The notes under the pieces are model-generated. The model was not told the DNA's origin, did no database searches, and worked only from the letters and a program-made list of their open reading frames with translations. The position numbers and the translations under genes were made by a program. Shown one piece after another: positions 5,447 to 46,422 of a DNA stretch of 62,588 nt. The stretch is from Euryarchaeota archaeon UBA52 (GTDB taxonomy: Archaea > Thermoplasmatota > Poseidoniia > Poseidoniales > Thalassarchaeaceae), in the NCBI GenBank assembly GCA_002505455.1, contig DAVB01000002.1:1-62588 (forward strand), given 5' to 3'. Position 1 is the first letter of the stretch, and each line of letters starts with the position of its first letter.

Positions 5447-7547
5447 TCTCCACATGGATTTCATCTATAACTTCTGAAGCTGCTTTCACACAGCCTGCCG
5501 CTCTAAGTCTTCGAGCTGCCTCTGCCCATAGCCGTATCCGATCATCGGAATGAATAGCTCCGCTCCAATACCATGCAAATGCATCGATTCTTCTGTGCTC
5601 AGGTCTATTCTCATTTTCCTGGATTTTAAACTCGGCATCATGCGCGTTGATGAGCCACAAGGGGATATCAGGGGAGGATGAATCGAGTCCCCAGTGGATC
5701 TTCTTGAGGCGATCATACCTTCCAGGCGTACGCTGAATGGATTCAAACAGCCTTGATTCTGCGACACCGTTCCAAGGCTGTAATGTGATTTTCAAATCTA
5801 TCTCTTCCAATCGAGGATGGTCCTCACCAAGAATTTCAACTATTGAAGATCTTAGAGAAGCCGCTTGGATTACGTCACTAGAACCTGATGCAATGATATA
5901 TCGAAGAATCAATCTTGAAGCGATAAGGGAAGGGCTCATTTCGGATGAGATTCCCTCCGTCAGATCTAGTCTTTTAGTCAGCCTCATTGCTAACTCTGGA
6001 TCTAACGGCCCTGGTAAGCGATCGTCATGCATTGCTATCGCTCCTCTGACCAGTATGCTTGCTCTTTCAGAATCAGGAAGCCGATCCAGGAGTAATTCCT
6101 CGATTCTTGAACACTCGCCATCATCTCCGCCCATACGAGCGCATTCGAGATCTATTTTCCATCGATCTGGACCTTCCTCAATATCGATTGCTATCTTTCT
6201 TGCTATTTTCGTTTCTCCTCTTGAAATCGCGACATGCGCAGCGAGAATCCGCAAATCATCCCTGTCCTCTCTCTCTAAAGCGTCGCTGAGTAGTGACGCG
6301 GCTATGGCTGATTCGGATTCCTCGGAGACAACGTTTGCGAGTGCGAGATCAAGGGTTTGTCCCGAGGAAATTCTGTGATGCATTTCGAATGCTCGGGCTT
6401 CATGGCCTGGAATGTCAGACCAGTGGGAAGCTAGATTGGCGTGTATCGAATATTTTGTCATCTCATCCATGGCCGCTGAATGTACATTCCTGATGAGATG
6501 ATGCGCTTCGAAACCGAACTCGCCCCATTTCAGTATAGCTGCCTCATCCAGATCATCAATAGTTTGGTCGGAAAGGGAATGATTCTTCTGGACCGGGAAC
6601 GGTTCTAAAGATAGTTCGTCGAGACCCTGGATGGAGGATGTACTCAATCTACTCAGCACAGTAGAAGTCACAAACTCGGCGATTGGGGTTTCGGGTGTCG
6701 GAAGATCATCACCCTCCCTCCACATCTCGATTGCCAGAGGGTGTCCTCCGAGAGCAGTGGCTATCTGTTTTGCACGTTTCTCTTCCAAATGAGGGGCTAT
6801 CTTGGATGCGACCTCGATATCTACCCCTTCCAATGTGTATCTGGTGGCAGAAGGAATCGTTGAGAAGATGCTAGGAGTTCTCGTTATGACCAATATAGTC
6901 GCTTGATGGGCATTCTGAATCATAGATTTGATTGATTCTGCATGTCGATGGTGTATCTCCTGTGCCTCGTCGAGGACATAGAGGGAATCCTCTTCAAGTC
7001 TCGATGCAGAGAGGTCATAGGGCTCATTAAAGGCAAATTTTGTCCATGATTTCATGATTAAATCGAGGTCTGTTGCCGCGTTAGCCGTGCACCAACCTAG
7101 TCTCCTTCCTTCTTTCTCGAGACCATATGCAACAGCTCGTGCGAGAGTTGTCTTGCCGATACCCGGCAGTCCGGTAAGAGTCACAATTCCAGACTCTGAG
7201 AGTATGTTTTGAAGAGCCTCGATATCACTCGATCTTCCGAATATGGAAATAGCGTTTTTATCATTACCACCTGGGACGCCCAAGTTGTTTGCCAATTCTA
7301 GTCCTTTTTTGGTCAGTAGAAGTACCGTTCTTCGTCTTGTGGCTCCAATCACATTACTCTTGATTGATTGAATCAGGCCCTTTGACTCGAGTGCAGCCGC
7401 TGGAACGTGGAGGGCTGAGCGGACCACTCCAAGTTCCATTGCTAAAGCAGGCAGTGAGAGCGATGGAGGGAAGTCTCGACGTAGATTTCTATCCACCTCT
7501 ATACTTGCAAGAGTGGTCAACAACCTCTCCTCGGGACCCGTCAGCAC
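5427..7547 (-). CDS. Winged-HTH + STAND-like P-loop NTPase + alpha-helical (TPR-like) C-terminal region, 706 aa
   Basis: N-terminal wHTH (LAMELGVVRSALH...LESKGLI...RRRTVLLLTKKG), Walker A GLPGIGKTT (7149-7172), Walker B LYVLDEAQ, STAND GxP motif GGHPLAI, MHD-like HHLIR, Ala/Leu-rich helical C-half. Confidence 0.75.
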   Translation of the reverse strand: MLTGPEERLLTTLASIEVDRNLRRDFPPSLSLPALAMELGVVRSALHVPAAALESKGLIQSIKSNVIGATRRRTVLLLTKKGLELANNLGVPGGNDKNAISIFGRSSDIEALQNILSESGIVTLTGLPGIGKTTLARAVAYGLEKEGRRLGWCTANAATDLDLIMKSWTKFAFNEPYDLSASRLEEDSLYVLDEAQEIHHRHAESIKSMIQNAHQATILVITRTPSIFSTIPSATRYTLEGVDIEVASKIAPHLEEKRAKQIATALGGHPLAIEMWREGDDLPTPETPIAEFVTSTVLSRLSTSSIQGLDELSLEPFPVQKNHSLSDQTIDDLDEAAILKWGEFGFEAHHLIRNVHSAAMDEMTKYSIHANLASHWSDIPGHEARAFEMHHRISSGQTLDLALANVVSEESESAIAASLLSDALEREDRDDLRILAAHVAISRGETKIARKIAIDIEEGPDRWKIDLECARMGGDDGECSRIEELLLDRLPDSERASILVRGAIAMHDDRLPGPLDPELAMRLTKRLDLTEGISSEMSPSLIASRLILRYIIASGSSDVIQAASLRSSIVEILGEDHPRLEEIDLKITLQPWNGVAESRLFESIQRTPGRYDRLKKIHWGLDSSSPDIPLWLINAHDAEFKIQENENRPEHRRIDAFAWYWSGAIHSDDRIRLWAEAARRLRAAGCVKAASEVIDEIHVEIRSRRR

Positions 7548-26288: not shown

Positions 26289-27323
26289 TTAGACGTTTGG
26301 CGCTCTACCAGCCATAATTCGCCTCCATATTGGAGGTATTAAGCAAGGCCACCAACACGCGTAGTAACCAGAAGGCAGAGTTGGGGCATCGGGGTGAGGT
26401 CGGAGTTTCCAGAAAGGTACGGATGCGCGAAGATGGTGATCGCTATGACGAGTTAATTCGAGAAGACTCCAGCGTGACCACTTCGCTTCAGTGTTCCATG
26501 CATGCTCTGCTTGAAATTTCTTATCCGAATCATCACGTCTGAGTCCCCAGTGTCGGATGTAGTTGACATATTCGAGAGTCAAAATTGCTATCGAAGATAG
26601 AACGAACCAGCCGATAGCGATTGATGCTGCCTGCTTGTAGCCCGAGAAATATGCAACTGTCAGGACAGCAAATGTCGAGATTTGAATCAAGAGGCCTCTC
26701 CATGAGGGGTTTGAAAGGCCTGTTCTTCCTTTTTTATTGTGTATTCGCACGGATGATGAAAACTGCCCGGGAATGGTCCTGAGCCAGAATGACCAGATTC
26801 CTTCCTCAACTCTTGCACTCGCTGGATCTTCATCAGTGGCCACATTCCGATGATGGTTATGGTTATGTTCGGTTGTGAAATGAGGGTAGTTTATGCTGAA
26901 GAGGAGGAGTCGTGCCAGTCGCCATCCTGGACTTCTCGGACGTTGATGGCCCAGTTCATGAGCGGTCACTATTGCTGATGCCGCTGCTGCTAGACCTGTG
27001 GATAATGAGGCTGCAATAAGCCAAACTGTGAGTCCTTCTGAGAATGCAAAAATGAAGAATGAGCCCATCATTACAAAGTGTACAACCCCATGAATCCAGA
27101 GTAGCGTCATGAATGGCGTCCCAGAATCCCTAGGGGGACGAATGGTCTTTGACTGGCCCATCACAAGATCGAGAATTGGGCCGACGACCCATATGAAAAC
27201 GACGCCTAGGAGCGTATATGCTCCTCCGAGAAGATTCCCGGCGATTACCAGGGAGGGGCTGATGAGACCCAAAAGATGCAGAGGCCAGGGTTCGGGAGCC
27301 AGTGGCTCAACAACATCTTCCAT
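26289..27323 (-). CDS. alkB: Alkane 1-monooxygenase (AlkB)-like di-iron membrane enzyme
   Basis: His boxes HELGH, EHNHNHHRNVATDEDPASAR, NYIRHWGLRR, LTRHSDHH; LPSGY; N-terminal TM helices. Confidence 0.85.
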   Translation of the reverse strand: MEDVVEPLAPEPWPLHLLGLISPSLVIAGNLLGGAYTLLGVVFIWVVGPILDLVMGQSKTIRPPRDSGTPFMTLLWIHGVVHFVMMGSFFIFAFSEGLTVWLIAASLSTGLAAAASAIVTAHELGHQRPRSPGWRLARLLLFSINYPHFTTEHNHNHHRNVATDEDPASARVEEGIWSFWLRTIPGQFSSSVRIHNKKGRTGLSNPSWRGLLIQISTFAVLTVAYFSGYKQAASIAIGWFVLSSIAILTLEYVNYIRHWGLRRDDSDKKFQAEHAWNTEAKWSRWSLLELTRHSDHHLRASVPFWKLRPHPDAPTLPSGYYACWWPCLIPPIWRRIMAGRAPNV

Positions 27324-37042: not shown

Positions 37043-37124
37043 ACTAACGTGACGAGCACTGAACCATTATGATTCTTCGTCTGATGTAATGCTGCTTCAT
37101 TATGCATACGTTCCTTGGACTATC

Positions 37125-38288
37125 ATGGATACGATTGAAGACTTAGGACGGCGTCCTAAGGATGTGACCCGTCGTCTCAACATACTCCTGGTCCATGTCT
37201 GGTTCTGGCCGCATGTCGGAGGAGGGGACAGACACGTCGAGTTGCTCGGCAGAGAACTTGTCGCAAAGGGCCACAAGGTTACGGTTTGGTGTGCAGATGT
37301 TCCTGAACATAGTGAGAAAGAGTTCTCTAGGCACGGAATTTCTGTAGTGCGTATCCCTGCGACCTCGGTACTTGGAGGGGTTGATCCGGTTGTTTCGATA
37401 AAGAATCTCGACATGTCTGATTTTGATGTCGTACACCTTCACGATACGTTACCTATACTAATTAGGAAGACGGCTCTGAAGGCTTCTAAGTTGGGGATTC
37501 CTATTGTCACGACATACCATAACGACTACGTGAAATCGACGTTTATTGGCAGATTGATCAAGCGAATGAGATGGTCTTTTCAAGGCAATAGAACGCTCTC
37601 TTCTTCTGAAATTATTATCGCATTGAGACCCTACTTCGAAGGCCTGCTTAGATCGAAGGGTGCAAGGGGAGAGATTAGGATAATTCCAACTGGATTTGAG
37701 CCTCCTCAGGATTCCCGTAAACGTCCAGAAGGGGTTCCTGAAGGACCGTTCTTGCTTTATCTTTCACGCCTGACTAAACAGAAGGGCGTTGACATCTTGC
37801 TCGATGCATGGAGTTCTATGGATGATACAGAACGGAACGGGCATACGATGGTGGTTGCAGGAACTGGACCCATGGAGCAGGATGTGATTGATGCTTCTAA
37901 TTCACCTTCTGAATCTGATCTTTATCACCTAGGTCTCGTTGACGAGGAGGAGAAATCATGGCTGCTGAAAAATGCATCGGGCCTTGTGCTTCCCTCACGA
38001 TTTGAAGGGTTGCCTGCAATATTGCTAGAGGGGGCATGGACTGGGCTTCCAGTTGCTATGGCGGATGTTAACGGATTGGGGAATTTTGTCGAAGGGGGGG
38101 GTTTCGGGATCACATTTCAGCCGGATAGTGTAATGCAATGTAAACTTGGAATGTTGCGCCTGTCTCTGGCTGAAGATGAGCAGCGGAATTCATGGTCGAA
38201 GAATGGTCAAAATTTCGCAGAAATGTACCTCTGGCCCAAGGTGGCTAACGAGATTGAAGCGGCGTACAATGATGCCGTAAACAAGTGA
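37125..38288 (+). CDS. Glycosyltransferase family 4
   Basis: FWPHVGGGDRHV, VHLHD, TYHND, YLSRLTKQKG, LPSRFEGLPAILLEG (EX7E). Start approximate. Confidence 0.88.
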   Translation: MDTIEDLGRRPKDVTRRLNILLVHVWFWPHVGGGDRHVELLGRELVAKGHKVTVWCADVPEHSEKEFSRHGISVVRIPATSVLGGVDPVVSIKNLDMSDFDVVHLHDTLPILIRKTALKASKLGIPIVTTYHNDYVKSTFIGRLIKRMRWSFQGNRTLSSSEIIIALRPYFEGLLRSKGARGEIRIIPTGFEPPQDSRKRPEGVPEGPFLLYLSRLTKQKGVDILLDAWSSMDDTERNGHTMVVAGTGPMEQDVIDASNSPSESDLYHLGLVDEEEKSWLLKNASGLVLPSRFEGLPAILLEGAWTGLPVAMADVNGLGNFVEGGGFGITFQPDSVMQCKLGMLRLSLAEDEQRNSWSKNGQNFAEMYLWPKVANEIEAAYNDAVNK

Positions 38289-38354
38289 TTTTCGATCGGA
38301 ACGTGATTGGATACGCTCCGGAAGCGACAATAAGTATCCACCAGAGGGAGCCAT

Positions 38355-39626
38355 ATGCAGACTCGACTGGCGGTCGGGGCGGAAAGCAAACCAAGCCTGC
38401 TGGTGGCTAAGGGATGTTTCGAACCGATGGGTGGTGCTGAGCGAGACCTCATCAGAGTAATTCCAGACTTATGTGAACGTTTTATTGTTACAGTCGCCAC
38501 ATTGAGGCCTTCTGATGAGCTTGAAGAGATATGCTCTAATCTTAGCATTGATCTCCTTCAGCCAGAGAAGCCATGGATAGTGCCCAGGGGATGGCTTAAC
38601 GAAATCTTGCATAGGAAGCAAAGGGGATCATTTCAGCAGTGGGCTTCAATCCCCGGAATAAAGGAGAGAATATCCGATGTAGATGGGATTCATCTTGTCA
38701 GCGGAGATGGCTCAATGGGCATACTACGCCTAGTCGATTCGTCTAAATCAGTACATGTTCACTATCTGGAACCGGATCGAGGTTTGTATGAGGATGTGCT
38801 TCATCTTGATGTCGGAGGTCGGCCCAAAAGACCGCTTTTTCTTACTCGTATCGCACTTTCTTTTGCTAAGTTCTCTGACAGGAGAATGGTGAAGAAAATG
38901 GTTGCATCGCCTAATGTTGTTATTTCTGCTAACTCGAGATACAGCGCTGAGAGGTTTCTTTCTATCTATGGATCTGAAGCGGGAGTCATCCGGCCTAATG
39001 TATCTTCCAAAGAATTTGCCAAGAAGGAGACTGACAGAGAGGAAGGGGCATGGAAAGAGGTAGAGGACCTTCCCGAACCCCCATGGGTGGTGACCATAGG
39101 CGGTTTCAATTGGGTAAAGGGCATTTGGGAATGTATCTCCATGTTGAAAGATTCAGAAGTTGGACTGGCCGTTATAGGTAGAGGTTCGGACGAAGACCTC
39201 TACGCTTTGAAAGAACATGCCAAGCGTTGTGAAGTGGAACTATGGGCCTATAGCGATCTTGATTTAAGTCAGCTAATCGCTACTATGAGGAGGTCTCGCG
39301 CCGTTATTTCAATGGCTCATGGCGAGCCTTTTGGCCTCACAGCCATCGAGGCACTATCGATCGGAGTTCCTGCATTGTTTGTGGATGAAGGCGGTTTTAG
39401 AGACTCGATTGTGGATGGAGTTTGTGGGAGGCTCTTGCCCCGGGATGATCCAATAGCGTGGCATTTAGCGATTGAAGAGGCGGGCGATCCTGAGGTAGCC
39501 GAGCGATGGAAGGTGGCTGGAAGAGCACGGATTTCAGAGTTAGAGCTGGATCCTCAATCTCAGGCCGAATTCATCGGCCATGCACTATTTCCGAATCGAT
39601 CCCCCCTTCATCTTGAAGAGGAATGA
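38355..39626 (+). CDS. Glycosyltransferase family 4
   Basis: MGGAERD, ANSRYS, WVKG, EPFGLTAIEAL..GVP, GGFRDSI. Confidence 0.82.
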   Translation: MQTRLAVGAESKPSLLVAKGCFEPMGGAERDLIRVIPDLCERFIVTVATLRPSDELEEICSNLSIDLLQPEKPWIVPRGWLNEILHRKQRGSFQQWASIPGIKERISDVDGIHLVSGDGSMGILRLVDSSKSVHVHYLEPDRGLYEDVLHLDVGGRPKRPLFLTRIALSFAKFSDRRMVKKMVASPNVVISANSRYSAERFLSIYGSEAGVIRPNVSSKEFAKKETDREEGAWKEVEDLPEPPWVVTIGGFNWVKGIWECISMLKDSEVGLAVIGRGSDEDLYALKEHAKRCEVELWAYSDLDLSQLIATMRRSRAVISMAHGEPFGLTAIEALSIGVPALFVDEGGFRDSIVDGVCGRLLPRDDPIAWHLAIEEAGDPEVAERWKVAGRARISELELDPQSQAEFIGHALFPNRSPLHLEEE

Positions 39627-40127: not shown

Positions 40128-40221
40128 GTAATCCGCGATGAATGATTTCTACTAAGCATTGCCAATTACTGTGAAAAAATTGTAGCGACTGGTTCATGAG
40201 ATACCCATGGGACGGCCGGTC

Positions 40222-42279
40222 ATGCATCCAATCGAGCGTATCGCTGTAGTAGGAGCGGGCAACATGGGTTCGGGTATAGCCCAGAAATCCGCTCAGGAGG
40301 GATTCATGGTTCAGATGATCGATAGAGAAAGGGAGTTTGTTGACAGGGGGATCAAGACAATCGAGGGTTTCCTCGATGAAGCGGTCGAGAGGAGGATTCT
40401 CAGTGATTCGGCTGCGAAAAGTACGCTTTCGAGGGTTTCTGGCGCTGTAGGCGTAGGTTCGATAGAGGAACAGACAGATTTGGTCATAGAGGCGGTTTTC
40501 GAAGATTTGGATGTTAAAAAATCGGTATTGGAAGGTCTTTCCTCATCGTGCAATGAAAAGACAATCATAGCAACAAATACCTCGTCATTATCAGTAGAGC
40601 AACTTTCCTTGATGTCAGACCGTCCTGATCGCTTCATAGGGTTGCACTTCTTCTACCACCCCGCAAAGAACAGACTGGTTGAAGTCATACCCTCTTCATC
40701 TACTTCTGATACTTCGATTAAAGCCGTAGTACAATATTGCAGAGCGATGGGGAAAGTTGTGATAGTTTGCAAAGACAGGCCTGGATTCGTTGTTAATCGG
40801 TTCTTCGTGCCATGGTTGAACGAGGCATGCATCCTGTATGATGATGGCATCGGGACCCCTGCTCAGATAGATGCAATTGCTAGAGACTCTTTCGGGATAG
40901 GCATGGGGCCATTTGCTCTTATGAATCTCACAGGCCCGTCAATAGCACTTCATTCAACGGATTACCTGGCTACCCAACTGGATACTGATCGCTTCTCAGG
41001 TGCGGATTGTCTTCGTAAACTAGTGAAAGAAGGCAGAGAATGGGACCTTTCAGGATCCGAGGATTGCGAACGAAGCGTCTCAGAAGAAATTAGGAGGCGC
41101 TTATTGGGAACTATATTCTGCGTATCTTCCCAGATTGTCGAAGAAGGGATATGCTCAATGGAAGATGTCGATAGAGGTGCTAAAGTAGGGTTAAGATGGG
41201 CCAATGGCCCTTTTGAAATGGCAAACTCGATAGGAGTTGATTTGGCCTCCAAACTGGCATCTGAATACGCATCATTAGCTTCGATAGAAAACCCATCATT
41301 GCTCGCCAAACAGGGCTCTGAACCATTCAAATTTGATTTCTTTGACTTGAATCTGGATGGTGAAGTTGCAACAATAACATTCAATCGCCCGGAAGCGATG
41401 AATGCACTCAACGTAGAAGTGATGGCTCAACTCGGAGAGATATGGAAGGATATAGAATCTAATGATTCAATCAAAACGGCAGTTTTCAGAGGTTCAGGAA
41501 AGGCATTCGTAGCAGGTGCAGACATCAGGTTCTTTGTTGACAGGATTGAATCTAATCGAATTAACGAGATACAGGAATTCACAGAAGAAGGACATCGCAT
41601 CTTGAATGCCATTCAATCATCTAGGCTGACTACCATAGCGGTGATTTCTGGTTTGGCTCTAGGAGGGGGATTGGAACTTGCTCTTTGCTGTGATCACAGG
41701 ATTGGGACCCCGAAGACGATGCTCCGATTCCCTGAAACTGGAATAGGAATCTATCCAGGACTCGGAGGGACGCAACGTGCAGTGCAAATCGCTGGTGTAG
41801 AATGTGCTAGATATGCAATAATAGCAGGTAACTGGATGAGTTCAGAAGATTCAATGTCCATGGGATATCTTACGGAAATTGTTGCATTTTCTGATATAGA
41901 AAAAGCAGTATTACGTGCCTCTGATGGGCTTACTGAACCATATGGCCAGCCCTACTCGCCAAGATTGGATAATTCTGAGAGGATAGAAAATATTCTTTCA
42001 TCGTACACTCAAATGGGCATGGAATCGATGATATCAGGTTCATTTGACACAGATAATCAATTCTTGAGCAGACAGGCTAAACTGATTTCGAGAAATGCTC
42101 CTATAGCTATCAAGATGGCTGCAGAGCTCATTGAAATCGCAGACAAGTCGCGAGACGATCGCCGAATTGGCCTGCAAGCAGAATTGGACGGTTTAGATGC
42201 AATCTTCTCGACCAATGATGCGCTCAAAGGCTTGAAATCTGTCCTCGAGGGCTCAAGAGTTTCTTTCGATGGTGCCTAG
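40222..42279 (+). CDS. Fused 3-hydroxyacyl-CoA dehydrogenase (N-terminal) / enoyl-CoA hydratase (C-terminal), archaeal domain order
   Basis: IAVVGAGNMGSGIA, EAVFED, TNTSS, GLHFF, DRPGFVVNR; crotonase NRPEAMNAL, AFVAGADI, GGGLELALCC, FPETGIGIYPG.GGTQR. Confidence 0.92.
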   Translation: MHPIERIAVVGAGNMGSGIAQKSAQEGFMVQMIDREREFVDRGIKTIEGFLDEAVERRILSDSAAKSTLSRVSGAVGVGSIEEQTDLVIEAVFEDLDVKKSVLEGLSSSCNEKTIIATNTSSLSVEQLSLMSDRPDRFIGLHFFYHPAKNRLVEVIPSSSTSDTSIKAVVQYCRAMGKVVIVCKDRPGFVVNRFFVPWLNEACILYDDGIGTPAQIDAIARDSFGIGMGPFALMNLTGPSIALHSTDYLATQLDTDRFSGADCLRKLVKEGREWDLSGSEDCERSVSEEIRRRLLGTIFCVSSQIVEEGICSMEDVDRGAKVGLRWANGPFEMANSIGVDLASKLASEYASLASIENPSLLAKQGSEPFKFDFFDLNLDGEVATITFNRPEAMNALNVEVMAQLGEIWKDIESNDSIKTAVFRGSGKAFVAGADIRFFVDRIESNRINEIQEFTEEGHRILNAIQSSRLTTIAVISGLALGGGLELALCCDHRIGTPKTMLRFPETGIGIYPGLGGTQRAVQIAGVECARYAIIAGNWMSSEDSMSMGYLTEIVAFSDIEKAVLRASDGLTEPYGQPYSPRLDNSERIENILSSYTQMGMESMISGSFDTDNQFLSRQAKLISRNAPIAIKMAAELIEIADKSRDDRRIGLQAELDGLDAIFSTNDALKGLKSVLEGSRVSFDGA

Positions 42280-42498: not shown

Positions 42499-42607
42499 AC
42501 AACTTGGTGTTATTTCAACACCGTCTCAGATAATACCTATTTGAATGATTAAGGTTGCATGTCAACACCGAGGTTTTGTTTATACACTAGATAATTTTGA
42601 ACGCACC

Positions 42608-43066
42608 ATGAACCGCAACTTTAGGCCTAAGAAGATGGATCAACAGGATATTGTCAAAATTTTAGAATTCATTGAAGATGTGAAAACGACAGGTGGGATG
42701 ATTCGAAGTACGTTTGAAGAATATTCAGACCCCTTGACGGCTATTGAATGGGAAGTAGATGCAGCCGTTGAATGCTTCGAAATATTTAGTTCTAGGTGGA
42801 CGATTGAGATTCTTGCAGCGTTGTATATTGCAGGTGATCGTCGATTTAATGAGATGCGTACTCTGTTGAGAGGCATCAGTAGTAGGACTCTATCTGACAA
42901 ATTGAGTGCGTGTCAGAAGAACGGGCTTGTTGATCGGGTAGTAGAAGAAGGCCCGCCGATAAGAGTGACTTATCGGCTTACAGAACATGGTAGAACATGT
43001 GGCAGATTACTGGGCGTACTGATAGCTTACATGAAAATTGAGAAAGGGCTTGTAGAGAGTGCTTAG
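42608..43066 (+). CDS. HxlR-family winged-helix transcriptional regulator
   Basis: FSSRWTIEIL..L....RRFNEM...LRGISSRTLSDKL....KNGLV.R.V..GPPIRVTYRLTEHG. Confidence 0.88.
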   Translation: MNRNFRPKKMDQQDIVKILEFIEDVKTTGGMIRSTFEEYSDPLTAIEWEVDAAVECFEIFSSRWTIEILAALYIAGDRRFNEMRTLLRGISSRTLSDKLSACQKNGLVDRVVEEGPPIRVTYRLTEHGRTCGRLLGVLIAYMKIEKGLVESA

Positions 43067-43146
43067 AATATTCTCTGATCTACTGTATTCTTTCGTTGTT
43101 TGAAAATTAGTTACTGGTGGCATTAATCGTAGGGCGTTTGAGATAT

Positions 43147-44550
43147 ATGGGTGGCTCTCAATTAGTCGCGCGAGGGGCATGGGGGTGGATATTGAACCCA
43201 ATTTTCCTATCTACGGAAATTCTATTCATAGATTTCATATTATCAAAATGGTTCTTCATCGAGACTTGTAGCATCGTAGGTTCCTTTGTTTTGTTTGTAT
43301 TCGCAACGATTTACTCATGGTTTGATTTCTCTTCTCAGACTAAATTACAAACCTACGTTATTTGTATGGCTGCAATTTTCGAGTTGGGAATTTTATCCTC
43401 AGAGTTGATGATAGACCGGACATTGATTCAATTGTCTCTCTGTACTGCAATATTGGTTTGTGGGGTATTCCATATCCTTGTACTGAAATTGCGTATAATA
43501 GATGGGTCAATTCATTCTCGTAGTTTGTTTAGAGCCAAGAAATTCAATCCGGAAAATACGACTGTAGAGATTCGAGAACCCGGAATCAGTATAATCATGA
43601 AGACTGGTGATTTGATTCTTCGAAATGACAATTCCAAAATTAGACTTTCAGGTTTGAAGAATCCGGATTTAATCAGAAGGAAATTAATTGACAAATTTGG
43701 AGTATTGCCTCATTTTCAAAGAGCTACCTGGGCAGGAACTCTTTGGATATTTTTGTTCCTCATCATTGTTATCGCGGTGATTGAATGTTGCCTGTTTATT
43801 CTAATCAATCAGGCAATGCCGGCTAATGGCGTCACACAGAGCGTTGGATCGCTTGCGGTTTGGTTCATAGCCAACATGTGTATCTTGAATGTACGGATTC
43901 CGAGATACCCAAATGATCCTGCAGATGACCTTCGTCATCAGACTAAAATTGCTGAGGGAATGTGGACAGAGATATTTCATGAAAAAGATGGATGGGTAAC
44001 AAAACAATTCTTCCGATGCGGGTGGGGGCACAATGATTACACCGAACATAGAGTTCCAGTAATTGGATCGAAGATTTGTGGTAAGTGGAACCCATTGGTA
44101 TTGGTAATCATTCATTCTGCAATGCTAATTTACCAGATGATCGGTGTGAAAAGAAGGATTGTCTATCAGGATTTTATTCGAGCCTTGCCTAAAACAAAAT
44201 TGGAGGTCCGGGCTCCTTACAGGTACAGTCAACAGTGGGTAGAAAACGAATTTGTTTCCGAAAATATGCCTCAAGACGTACATTCTCAAATGAGTGACCT
44301 CCAAGAAGACCTCTCTCGAGTTGGTCTCTTTATCGACGATATGCATGCAGCTAACTTCAGGATAGATCAAGGATCAAAGATTCAAGCGATTGATGGTGAG
44401 CTGTACACTGATGGTGAGGTATTTGTGAAGAGTTTGCTGGTTCGATTGGTTGATGGGCATCGAGTCGAGGGGATGAGCCCGGTTCTAGGTTATGACCGAA
44501 TTGTTAGATGGGTCGATCATAGGGCTTCTGTAGATGATATCTTGCGTTGA
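43147..44550 (+). CDS. Multi-pass membrane protein with bacterial PH-like domain and C-terminal protein-kinase-like domain, 467 aa
   Basis: 4 TM, then bPH_2-like segment 43486-43698 (..KTGDLIL....IRLSGLKNPDLIRRKL), 2 TM, G-loop/beta3 IAEGMWTEIF....WVTKQF, catalytic-loop-like IDDMHAANF, DFG-like IDGE. Confidence 0.7.
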   Translation: MGGSQLVARGAWGWILNPIFLSTEILFIDFILSKWFFIETCSIVGSFVLFVFATIYSWFDFSSQTKLQTYVICMAAIFELGILSSELMIDRTLIQLSLCTAILVCGVFHILVLKLRIIDGSIHSRSLFRAKKFNPENTTVEIREPGISIIMKTGDLILRNDNSKIRLSGLKNPDLIRRKLIDKFGVLPHFQRATWAGTLWIFLFLIIVIAVIECCLFILINQAMPANGVTQSVGSLAVWFIANMCILNVRIPRYPNDPADDLRHQTKIAEGMWTEIFHEKDGWVTKQFFRCGWGHNDYTEHRVPVIGSKICGKWNPLVLVIIHSAMLIYQMIGVKRRIVYQDFIRALPKTKLEVRAPYRYSQQWVENEFVSENMPQDVHSQMSDLQEDLSRVGLFIDDMHAANFRIDQGSKIQAIDGELYTDGEVFVKSLLVRLVDGHRVEGMSPVLGYDRIVRWVDHRASVDDILR

Positions 44551-44651
44551 TAGCGAGTCGTTCTTGAAGCGATTGGAATGGATAAAAAGTGTATTCTAAC
44601 CTGATGCTAGAGACCGTTCTTTTCATAGGTTGTTTGTATTTGAGAAGGTTG

Positions 44652-45290
44652 ATGGCGCTGATTCATAGGGTGCTCCAGCCGGGTTGGTTCAACAGAGCTT
44701 TTTCTGTGTCAATGGGCGTCATCGGAATTCCCATTTTGAGTATCCAAGGGATACTCAAAGGATCTCCTGGACACAGTTGGGGGCACCCGTTAAGAGATAA
44801 GATCATGATTACACTAGATCGAAGCCCCGGGATACATTTCAGAGAGCTTCAAAGAAGGCTTGGAGTTGCAAACGGGACGTTGCGTCATCGGCTGTACAGA
44901 ATGGAGAGTGAGGGGGAGGTATTTGTTCAGAGGACTAATGGTCGGGTCTGTTATTATGCAGGCCCGCCTGCTCAATTGGAAATTCTGGATGGTATCAGGA
45001 TATCTAGTGACGCTCGAGCTTCGTCCATATTGCCCGTTGGTCTCTCCGATCTCCAGAGAAAGATTGTGGGTCGTTTGGTGGAGAATGATTCATTCAGGAG
45101 TCAGGCCGATCTAGCCAGATCCCTCGGTAGATCTCGTTCTGCCGTGAACAGTGCAGTGATAGTCCTCAGGAATAGAGGCATAATCCAAGAAGACGCGATC
45201 AAACTAGAGAGTCATCTATCGTGCCTTTCGAATCCAACAGTCGACTATGGTTGGATTGATATGCAAGGCAGAGTCGGTGTTCGAGGGTGA
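44652..45290 (+). CDS. Tandem winged-HTH transcriptional regulator (ArsR/MarR-like)
   Basis: PGIHFRELQRRLGVANGTLRHRLYRME..G.V and SQADLARSLGRSRSAVNSAV..LRNRGII. Start approximate. Confidence 0.75.
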   Translation: MALIHRVLQPGWFNRAFSVSMGVIGIPILSIQGILKGSPGHSWGHPLRDKIMITLDRSPGIHFRELQRRLGVANGTLRHRLYRMESEGEVFVQRTNGRVCYYAGPPAQLEILDGIRISSDARASSILPVGLSDLQRKIVGRLVENDSFRSQADLARSLGRSRSAVNSAVIVLRNRGIIQEDAIKLESHLSCLSNPTVDYGWIDMQGRVGVRG

Positions 45291-45342: not shown

Positions 45343-46422
45343 GTGCTTAGAGTTCGGTTTGTCGAGAGCGGGCTTCCCGCAGGAAGCCGGGACAAGAGCA
45401 TCCTCCTAGCATGGATACTGGACAGCATGGCCCTAATTAGGTCCAGAGGCGAGGGGAATAGCATAGCTGATGAACAGGGCGGAATGCATTCGATTGTGAG
45501 TAAATGCTTCATGTCGGAACCGAGGAAGGGATGGACAAGTGCAGAGATTGCAGACGTCACGGGAATCTCGTCAACTGGAATCCACCATCAATTAGTGAAA
45601 ATAAGGGAATCTGGACTTGTCTCTGACGTCAGGAGTAGCGAAGGCAAGAAGTACATGCTCAGAGGAGGTAGCTTCAATACGGCATTTGAGTTGATTTCAG
45701 CCAATGCAATTACAATAGCAAAACAACGGCTTTCCCTCCTACATGATGGAGTCATGAATAGTCAATCGAGGATGGAAGTTCCAGCAGAAGAGGAGTCGGT
45801 GCCATTCAAGATAGACATCGTAGAACTTGGCCCATCCTCTGAAAAAGATGCTTTAGAGGAATTGGTGACTGATCTCGGTTTTGGAGGAGATAGACCTAGA
45901 GCAAACGACTCCCTTCATTCAGATGTAATGGGCATACTGGTTTCTTCCGATCGTCCGCTTGAGCTTTCTCTTATGATGGAACAGACCGGAGGGAGTCGTG
46001 CAAGAGTTGGTCGGATCCTAGATAGAATGCGGGCAGCGGGGATGGTTGAGCGAGCGGTTGTGGAATCACGGATACCCATAGACGTTTTCGGGAGTTTGAG
46101 TCGTCAATATCGTGCCAGAGGAAGTGACTGGTTGATTGGAAGGGGGGGGTTAGGCCGTCTTCCGAATGACATATGCAAATCGCTGATAGATAGTCTTGAA
46201 CAGGAGGTCTTGACCATTGAAAAAGTATCCAGTTCTCTAGAAGAAATACCACTTCTTGATCAGAGAGTGCTGCTGAACACGATTGGTGGACGCGCACCTC
46301 TTGGATATCGATTGAAAGGCGCAACGGGAGGGGAAGTGGTGGCATCAGTACTTCGTGGACTTGAACGTACATTGTCCAGAATATCTTCTGTGGCGGGACG
46401 TTTGGATTCCTTAATCGAATGA
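45343..46422 (+). CDS. Multi-wHTH putative transcriptional regulator, 359 aa
   Basis: WTSAEIADVTGISSTGIHHQLVKIRESGLV and LMEQTGGSRARVGRILDRMRAAGMVER. Confidence 0.7.
   Translation: MLRVRFVESGLPAGSRDKSILLAWILDSMALIRSRGEGNSIADEQGGMHSIVSKCFMSEPRKGWTSAEIADVTGISSTGIHHQLVKIRESGLVSDVRSSEGKKYMLRGGSFNTAFELISANAITIAKQRLSLLHDGVMNSQSRMEVPAEEESVPFKIDIVELGPSSEKDALEELVTDLGFGGDRPRANDSLHSDVMGILVSSDRPLELSLMMEQTGGSRARVGRILDRMRAAGMVERAVVESRIPIDVFGSLSRQYRARGSDWLIGRGGLGRLPNDICKSLIDSLEQEVLTIEKVSSSLEEIPLLDQRVLLNTIGGRAPLGYRLKGATGGEVVASVLRGLERTLSRISSVAGRLDSLIE

Follow-up and report, generated by a model that had tools for sequence, protein, structure and literature searches.

What does a marine archaeon do with a gene that joins six membrane-spanning helices, a pleckstrin homology (PH)-like domain and a protein-kinase-like (PKL) domain in a single polypeptide? 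The question is raised by a 62,588-nt stretch of DNA (contig DAVB01000002.1, here called the window) from Euryarchaeota archaeon UBA52, a member of the Poseidoniales (Marine Group II, MGII) with a genome of 1.44 Mb, in which an open reading frame (ORF) at 43147-44550 on the forward strand runs from ATG to stop and encodes a protein of 467 aa, P0001. A preliminary description of this ORF, made by reading the sequence without database searches, had proposed a membrane-sensing kinase that could act on protein, lipid or small molecule, and had compared its architecture with that of Akt and Btk. Here we find that P0001 represents a new family and a new architecture within the known PKL superfamily, and that it is a fusion of two adjacent, translationally coupled genes that are separate in Flavobacteriales. 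We give a probability of about one half to the reading that it is an active phosphotransferase of the membrane interface, whose substrate would most likely be a lipid or a membrane-bound small molecule presented by the transmembrane (TM)/PH module.

P0001 carries a minimal kinase-like domain

To place P0001 in a structural context, we used an AlphaFold2 (AF2) model built on 54 homologues, which reached a pLDDT of 92.9 and a pTM of 0.88. When the whole model was compared with the Protein Data Bank (PDB) in Foldseek, all of the top 50 matches were PKL kinases, among them RIO2 (E 2e-4, probability 1.0), PKA, the 169-aa minimal kinase OspG (target TM-score, TMt, 0.57), CDK12 and CK2. Against BFVD, nearly all of the top 50 were viral protein kinases, including giant-virus kinases of 160-182 aa with TMt of 0.54-0.61 and root-mean-square deviations (rmsd) of 3.0-3.6 A over 155 columns. 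With kinase matches at probability 1.0, E-values of 1e-5 to 1e-3 and TMt of up to 0.61, the C-terminal domain models as a bilobal PKL fold, as the preliminary description had supposed.

The residues of the catalytic core support the same assignment. Strands beta1-3 (267-288) contain G271, W273 and the beta3 lysine K286, the catalytic loop reads D397-D398-x-H400-x-x-N403, and the equivalent of the DFG motif is D416-G417-E418. Positions invariant in the 54 close homologues include K286, D397, D398, H400, N403, R405, D416, G417 and E418. In a wider set of 26 sequences, which reaches down to 20-25% identity, K286, R336, Q381, H400, N403, D416 and E424 are invariant and D398 is kept in at least 90%. 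The Lys/Asp/Asn/Asp set of PKL enzymes (K286, D398, N403, D416) is thus conserved family-wide, and its spacing, 5 residues from D398 to N403 and 13 from N403 to D416, is the same as that of D166/N171/D184 in PKA. Judged from these sequence features, P0001 is predicted to be catalytically active. The motifs had been located accurately at the outset: IAEGMWTEIF...VTKQF, given from position 43945, begins at I267 and includes K286, IDDMHAANF (44332-44358) is I396-F404, IDGE (44389-44400) is I415-E418, and the PH-like segment at 43486-43698 is residues 114-184.

Other parts of the domain depart from the standard kinase plan. Only one glycine (G271) is invariant in the degenerate glycine-rich loop, and the alphaC glutamate has no identifiable counterpart: the alphaC-like helix (317-340) holds no conserved acidic residue, and Q330 within it is conserved in close relatives only. 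This helix is 24 residues long and hydrophobic, and gave rise to an extra, seventh peak in the hydropathy scan (316-334) that was absent from the preliminary description; according to the model, the stretch is a long alphaC-like kinase helix and not a TM helix. It could plausibly couple the membrane module to the active site. Between beta3 and alphaC there is a conserved Cys/His loop (C291, H295, H301, C311) that, from its sequence, may be a Zn site. Finally, the model contains no activation loop, as only 8 residues lead from D416 to E424 and a helix begins at about 422-424, and the C-lobe is truncated and lacks substrate-binding elements.

P0001 had no match in Pfam (E <= 1), which includes the eukaryotic-type kinase families Pkinase (PF00069) and PK_Tyr_Ser-Thr, in NCBIfam (E <= 10), among PDB sequences (phmmer, E <= 10) or in PADLOC or PHROGs, and neither fused nor split members of its family matched PADLOC-DB at E <= 0.1. 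A literature search found no description of the family or of the architecture. The family is therefore uncharacterised and lies outside all curated libraries that were tried (Pfam, NCBIfam, PADLOC, PHROGs), in agreement with its initial labelling as undescribed. The family profile aligned in register, at sub-threshold scores, with the LanKC-type kinase domain 8w7l (E 0.028) and with PKA 155-184 (E about 0.9). Fourteen of the 26 wide-set members weakly matched Kinase-PolyVal (PF18762) at 14-17 bits (best E 0.0028), below its gathering threshold of 27 bits and over only the last 35-55 profile positions, at the catalytic-loop end, and P0001 itself had no match to this family. Weak matches to YrbL and ABC1 were also seen among wide-set members (ABC1 in two, E 0.055), and two bacterial members weakly matched the kinase region of LanKC/LanL in NCBIfam.

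Comparison with known minimal kinases underlines both the likeness and the distance. RIO2, the OspG class and giant-virus kinases (160-180 aa) share with P0001 a PKL core of about 170-200 aa, a beta3 lysine, a D-x4-N loop with the metal-binding aspartate 13 residues later, the lack of an activation loop and a truncated C-lobe. However, no sequence homology to them was detectable (phmmer against the PDB was empty and profile matches were sub-threshold), and P0001 differs from them in its membrane domain, its Cys/His loop, its 24-residue hydrophobic alphaC-like helix, its lack of an alphaC glutamate and its one-glycine loop. At the sequence level, the best matches are LanKC/LanL and Kinase-PolyVal, which have the D-x-H-x-x-N ... 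I-D-x-E flavour in common with the P0001 family ('QDLHLGNILV..IIDWE' as against 'DDvHakNvrv..iiDGE'), but the scores are 12-17 bits where the cut-offs are 27 or > 575, about 50 residues align, and the P0001 family has neither the lyase/cyclase domains of LanKC/LanL nor a polyvalent-protein context.

The membrane module includes a divergent PH-fold domain

The AF2 model places four TM helices at the N-terminus of P0001, followed by a sandwich of 6-7 strands with a C-terminal helix (114-184), two further TM helices and the alpha/beta domain of 250-467. A hydropathy scan agreed with the modelled TM helices, and together they bear out the layout of four plus two helices given in the preliminary description. 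The ATG used here coincides with the start site in most homologues (54-sequence alignment); an alternative in-frame GTG at 43117 would lengthen the protein by 10 aa. The last two helices, TM5 and TM6, are preceded by a conserved W195-x-G197-T198 and followed by N248..R253..P258.

By the positive-inside rule, which is well established, the distribution of lysine and arginine (17 in the loop 113-198 and none in the short inter-helix loops) predicts that the N-terminus, the PH-like domain and the kinase domain are all cytoplasmic, so that both soluble domains would lie on the same side of the membrane, as had been proposed. A cytoplasmic kinase domain fits an ATP-using enzyme. In the model, about 3 residues separate the end of TM6 (247) from the first kinase strand (250), which suggests that the kinase N-lobe sits directly on the membrane. 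Invariant columns and an hhalign alignment with the family of bacterial upstream genes described below identified polar residues common to archaeal and bacterial forms, namely E24 in TM1, Y56..(D)F61-S62 in the cytoplasmic turn between TM2 and TM3, and Q68 at the cytoplasmic interface. As E24, Y56..DFS62 and Q68 are conserved in both forms, the membrane domain appears to be more than an anchor.

The middle domain of P0001 has a PH fold, as judged from the models. In the full AF2 model, the strands of its beta-sandwich fill residues 114-171 and the C-terminal helix residues 173-184, in keeping with the sandwich of seven strands plus helix that defines the PH-like superfold. Residues 108-192 modelled alone gave a pLDDT of 78.8, and in Foldseek this fragment best matched the middle PH domains of SSRP1/Pob3 (query TM-score, TMq, 0.60-0.66, probability about 1), followed by the USP37 PH domain, the MTMR6 PH-GRAM domain and the syntrophin PH domain. 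The top PH matches had TMq of 0.55-0.66 and rmsd of 2.7-3.5 A, with E-values of only 0.03-0.3. The preliminary description had gone further and assigned the segment to the bPH_2/YdbS pattern. The PH-type fold stands, but the pattern match does not: Pfam bPH_2 (PF03703, family threshold 22 bits) gave no match to P0001 at E <= 1, while the same model found a genuine bPH_2 protein elsewhere in the window genome at E 7e-9. Profile comparison with 14 genuine bPH_2 domains in hhalign returned a remote signal, with a probability of 42% (E 2.6e-4, 40 columns) for the archaeal domain and of 75% (E 2.5e-5, 82 columns, the whole domain) for the bacterial homologue family. We conclude that the domain is probably a very divergent bacterial PH (bPH) domain that falls below the family threshold. 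Like P0001, bPH_2 proteins of the YdbS/YdbT type have one or more TM hairpins followed by a cytoplasmic PH-fold domain of about 75 aa; unlike them, P0001 has four TM helices before this domain and a kinase coupled to it, and the Foldseek top 50 consisted of eukaryotic-type PH domains and included no recognised solved bPH. The genuine bPH_2 protein of the window genome is encoded outside the window in an open frame of 316 aa, and bPH_2 occurs in 45 of 81 sampled genomes of the phylum.

Akt/PKB, Btk and PDK1 also combine PH-fold and kinase-fold modules in one polypeptide at the membrane. Unlike these, P0001 has a different domain order relative to the membrane, an integral-membrane anchor and a minimal kinase without an activation loop, and it arose by fusion of two prokaryotic genes; no sequence relationship to Akt/PKB, Btk or PDK1 was detected. 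Since Flavobacteriales carry the PH and kinase halves as separate polypeptides, the parallel with Akt and Btk first drawn for this protein is an architectural analogy only, and P0001 is no prokaryotic forerunner of signalling of the Akt type.

P0001 is a fusion of two genes that are separate in Flavobacteriales

A search of 5.8 billion proteins returned 71 homologues of P0001, which came in two lengths. About 27 were full-length (39-90% identity) and, where the genome was named, all belonged to metagenome-assembled genomes (MAGs) or single-cell genomes of 'Candidatus Poseidoniales', 'Euryarchaeota' or 'Methanobacteriota'. About 45 were short (280-303 aa), matched residues 192-466 only (41-47% identity), so that these stand-alone kinase proteins begin at the TM5/TM6 region of P0001, and in named genomes came from Flavobacteriales (Crocinitomicaceae, Parvicellaceae, Lishizhenia and one MAG titled Chitinophaga). 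At each of the ten Flavobacteriales loci examined, another gene, of 178-217 aa, came just before the short gene, and its stop overlapped the start of the short gene by 1-20 nt. The product of this upstream gene matched the N-terminal half of the archaeal protein in BLASTP (E 3e-7), and the two families aligned over 177 columns in hhalign with a probability of 98.9% (E 3.5e-17). P0001 thus joins in one polypeptide what Flavobacteriales encode as two coupled genes, and because the fused form in archaea is split in bacteria, the bacterial 4TM-PH and 2TM-kinase products are predicted to form a complex. This is a clean Rosetta-stone case for a complex between a bPH membrane protein and a minimal kinase.

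A maximum-likelihood tree of the kinase part recovered fused and split forms as reciprocally monophyletic (support 99/91 and 99/87), which implies a single fusion or fission and a single transfer between domains of life, in either direction. More distant 2TM-kinase relatives were found at E-values from 1e-26 to 1e-4. Three of these (P0079, P0089, P0092) come from MMETSP marine eukaryote transcriptomes and have longer N-termini with multiple TM helices, and a cluster of AT-rich distant relatives (P0080) lies on contigs of up to 296 kb. A giant-virus origin was considered for the AT-rich relatives, and an IMG/VR scan with the single query P0080 returned no relative.

The bacterial pair lies in a desaturase-sulfotransferase cassette

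The neighbourhood of the Flavobacteriales pair offers a recurrent context. At seven of the ten loci the pair directly follows a Sulfotransfer_3 gene, which at six of them is joined by an FA_desaturase-family gene (Table 1). In the full four-gene cassette, the order is FA_desaturase-family, Sulfotransfer_3, 4TM-PH and 2TM-kinase, with overlapping stops and starts. This cassette is the sole recurrent functional association of the bacterial pair, and it probably represents an uncharacterised lipid-modifying pathway, as a desaturase together with a sulfotransferase points to the tailoring of a membrane lipid or other hydrophobic molecule. It thereby hints that marine Flavobacteriales modify a membrane lipid in a way not yet described.

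The archaeal gene is a recent, mobile insertion

At 40.9% GC, the P0001 gene lies below the mean of the window (48.2%; z = -3.3), and its region is the lowest-GC 1.4-kb stretch of the window. In three genomes of the same genus (G001, G003, G009), the FadB, HxlR and winged helix-turn-helix (wHTH) genes that surround it are contiguous, with a gap of about 30-45 bp between HxlR and wHTH (30 bp from stop to start in G003) and no kinase gene, whereas in the window about 1.53 kb separates the HxlR and wHTH genes and holds the P0001 gene only. The insertion is not bordered by any convincing direct or inverted repeats of the sort expected of a mobile element. Together, these data show that the gene was acquired horizontally as a low-GC, recent single-gene insertion; the acquisition first suspected from low GC is thus supported both by composition and by empty sites. 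The placement of the gene between HxlR and two wHTH regulators was likewise correct as a description of its neighbours, but the functional meaning attached to it was not: as HxlR and wHTH lie side by side in G001, G003 and G009, where the kinase gene is missing between them, they are bystanders, and we rejected them as functional partners.

The fused gene was present in 3 of 41 related genomes, and within the genus its copies are 45-58% identical and sit at different loci. The MGII contexts of the fused gene all differ. In one MGII sub-clade (L010, L014, L018), a fatty-acid-CoA-ligase/OleC-like AMP-binding gene follows the fused gene at 4 nt or overlapping it. A candidate remnant in G001 was rejected as a pseudogene because the gene is cut by the contig end, at a locus of only 1607 nt. 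The fused gene is therefore best described as a mobile, stand-alone accessory gene of MGII archaea, and the family as a documented accessory gene family that is common to marine Bacteroidota and MGII archaea and also moves within MGII.

A proposed membrane-interface phosphotransferase and its alternatives

How might such a protein work? In the reading we prefer, that of a membrane-interface phosphotransferase, the six-helix membrane domain and the cytoplasmic PH-fold domain would hold the minimal kinase core against the cytoplasmic face of the membrane. ATP would be positioned by K286, with D398 as the catalytic base and N403 and D416 as Mg2+ ligands. As the domain has no activation loop and no large C-lobe, its substrate would most likely be presented by the membrane/PH module, and a soluble protein would be a less likely substrate than a lipid or another small molecule bound to the membrane; the bacterial cassette, taken together with a minimal kinase of this kind, favours the same class of substrate. 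The polar residues conserved in the membrane domain of both forms also support this reading, and the acyl-ligase-like AMP-binding gene that follows the fused gene in three MGII genomes is a further tie to lipids. In Flavobacteriales, the two subunits (4TM-PH and 2TM-kinase) would usually work within a cassette of desaturase/hydroxylase-family and sulfotransferase enzymes that tailors a membrane lipid; in Poseidoniales, they would be fused in one polypeptide that moves between genomes as an accessory gene. PKL-fold membrane enzymes that act on lipid-linked or hydrophobic substrates are known, among them UbiB/ABC1/COQ8, the Kdo kinase KdkA and WaaP, and the UbiB type is anchored by TM helices. 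Apart from the marginal ABC1 matches of two family members, there was no significant sequence or structure match between P0001 and UbiB/COQ8, KdkA or WaaP, and the 4TM-PH-2TM-kinase architecture is unlike theirs.

Several observations weigh against this reading. None of the solved kinases nearest in structure acts as a kinase of lipids or small molecules: RIO2, OspG and PKA are protein kinases or ATPases. The alphaC partner of the beta3 lysine is not identifiable, and the glycine-rich loop keeps one invariant glycine. The orientation of the active site towards the membrane is deduced from the short TM6-to-beta1 linker of a model, and the proposed class of substrate is read from neighbouring genes and from the elements missing in the domain. 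The cassette is missing from three of the ten bacterial loci; Sulfotransfer_3 is absent from the window genome, and the one FA_desaturase-family gene there, 16 kb from the P0001 gene, is an AlkB-like core gene without relation to the cassette desaturase, so the cassette partners are not needed for the archaeal protein.

The main alternative, which takes up the membrane sensing of the preliminary description, sees in P0001 a signalling protein kinase anchored in the membrane (Ser/Thr/Tyr or autophosphorylating): the TM/PH part would sense the state of the membrane or envelope and switch the enzyme through the long hydrophobic alphaC-like helix, after which a cytoplasmic protein target would be phosphorylated. 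The best structural matches are indeed protein kinases (RIO2, PKA, CDK12, CK2 and viral Ser/Thr kinases), eukaryotic-type protein kinases have exactly the same catalytic spacing, and a compact whole predicted with a pTM of 0.88 fits coupling between regulatory domains. However, the activation segment is absent (8 residues, D416-E424) along with the substrate-binding elements of the C-lobe, the gene has no conserved companion, be it a partner, a phosphatase or a regulator, as MGII contexts differ and the adjacent regulators are resident, and the conserved bacterial partners are lipid-type enzymes. We therefore keep signalling as one option and consider it rather unlikely, since the bacterial cassette and the minimal kinase point instead to a lipid or small-molecule substrate. 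The irregular active site raises a different doubt, namely that the kinase fold serves another chemistry: a lipid-handling ATPase like UbiB/COQ8 that extracts or flips a hydrophobic molecule, an ATPase only, an AMPylase, or a pseudokinase scaffold. Along with the degenerate loop and the lack of an identifiable conserved alphaC glutamate, the weak ABC1 matches of two family members and the conserved polar TM residues of a membrane-embedded protein would suit such a role, but those matches are marginal (E 0.055) and the full Lys/Asp/Asn/Asp set, including the catalytic-base aspartate, is conserved as is typical of true phosphotransferases; we hold such activities to be improbable.

The mobility of the gene suggests yet another role, as a conflict or defence kinase (anti-virus or of abortive-infection type), a mobile accessory membrane protein that acts on viral or host proteins upon infection. 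Its patchy distribution (3 of 41 related genomes, different loci, 45-58% identity within the genus) and low-GC insertion agree with this, as do the DNA methylase with HinfI (L001), D12 methyltransferase (L010, L014, L018), Abi_alpha with resolvase (L005) and Fic (L020) found in the contexts of family members, several of which thereby sit in variable regions resembling defence islands, and the weak similarity to Kinase-PolyVal, a kinase family of polyvalent proteins. Yet variable regions of any kind commonly hold defence genes, and the neighbours conserved best belong to metabolism (sulfotransferase, desaturase, acyl ligase). Moreover, PADLOC and PHROGs gave no match, IMG/VR held no relative of the one query used (P0080), and the similarity to Kinase-PolyVal covers the universal catalytic core only and is below threshold. 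A defence function thus seems very improbable to us.

Returning to the membrane-interface phosphotransferase, a more specific version would make P0001 the founding member of a new family of two-component membrane kinases shared across domains of life (4TM-bPH plus 2TM-minimal-kinase) that phosphorylate a membrane lipid in a new phospho-/sulfo-lipid tailoring pathway. We offer this version tentatively and at less than even odds. If it were true, P0001 would be the first PKL-fold integral-membrane lipid kinase with a substrate delivered by a bacterial PH domain, and the bPH fold would gain its first enzymatic partner. To our knowledge, the roles of bacterial PH domains are largely unknown, and a complex of bPH protein and minimal kinase offers a testable function for them. 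P0001 thus brings no new principle, but a testable lead on bPH function and on a marine lipid pathway.

Features and neighbouring genes

Table 1. Positions of P0001, its domains and the genes discussed. Coordinates refer to the window unless a locus or contig is named.
Feature	Location	Strand	Details
P0001, complete ORF	43147..44550	+	467 aa; 4TM, PH-like, 2TM, minimal PKL domain; 71 homologues
Four TM helices	43180..43482	+	Residues 12-36, 43-59, 65-84, 91-112; AF2 secondary structure, hydropathy
PH-fold domain	43483..43701	+	Residues 113-185; fragment model, Foldseek, hhalign
TM5 + TM6	43741..43887	+	Residues 199-223, 228-247; AF2, hydropathy
Minimal PKL domain	43894..44547	+	Residues 250-467; invariant columns, Foldseek, profile matches
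Single-gene insertion	43067..44600	.	About 1.53 kb, GC 40.4%; empty site in G003 (L037), G009 (L035), G001 (L034)
HxlR-family regulator	42545..43066	+	PF01638 8e-17; resident; 88% identical orthologue next to wHTH in G003
Double wHTH protein (HTH_24 / HVO_0163_N)	44652..45290 (44589-45290 at widest)	+	Resident; 84% identical G003 orthologue
Second double-wHTH protein (MarR_2 / HTH_20)	45343-46422	+	Adjacent to first wHTH gene
FadB-like fusion gene	40207-42279		Upstream of HxlR
Two GT4 glycosyltransferase genes	37089-39626	+	Upstream of FadB-like gene
AlkB-like FA_desaturase-family gene	26289-27323	-	HELGH / EHNHNHH / HSDHH boxes; 65% identical to L010 1564-2577
Genuine bPH_2 protein	G000 contig C2, 8886-9062	-	Outside window
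AMP-binding gene after fused gene	L010 7415-9058; L014 7364-8995; L018 7389-9032		PRK09274 2.5e-91 (NCBIfam)
Four-gene cassette (example)	L020 3729-7498 (4TM-PH at 5986-6639, 2TM-kinase at 6626-7498)		
Upstream of bacterial pair	L006, L019, L020, L022, L023, L032		FA_desaturase-family (about 370 aa), then Sulfotransfer_3 (about 371 aa)
Upstream of bacterial pair	L027		Sulfotransfer_3 only
Upstream of bacterial pair	L005/L025, L026, L031		Neither FA_desaturase-family nor Sulfotransfer_3
Defence-type genes near family members	L001 8045-11878; L005 10961-11680; L020 7604-8626		

The FadB-like, HxlR and wHTH genes around the insertion belong to the resident genome. Both wHTH genes are conserved next to HxlR in the genus and form with it a regulator cluster downstream of the FadB-like gene, and the two GT4 genes further upstream are syntenic in the locus of a 90%-identical relative (L009). 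The FadB-like gene was rejected as evidence of a lipid context because it is resident, and the desaturase of the window because it is AlkB-like, apparently a conserved MGII gene, and unrelated to the desaturase of the Flavobacterial cassette. In the sub-clade with the AMP-binding gene, a major facilitator superfamily transporter on the opposite strand comes after it in all three loci.

Occurrence in marine samples

The P0001 sequence was recovered from at least 10 independent marine metagenome studies and is therefore not an assembly artefact. The 1.5-kb stretch was nearly complete in runs from several of these independent studies and partial in more. Family members are abundant in surface-ocean MGII archaea and Flavobacteriales. 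Short contigs within the gene, at 96-100% identity, were also found in two seawater metatranscriptomes, where carry-over of DNA into the libraries is possible.

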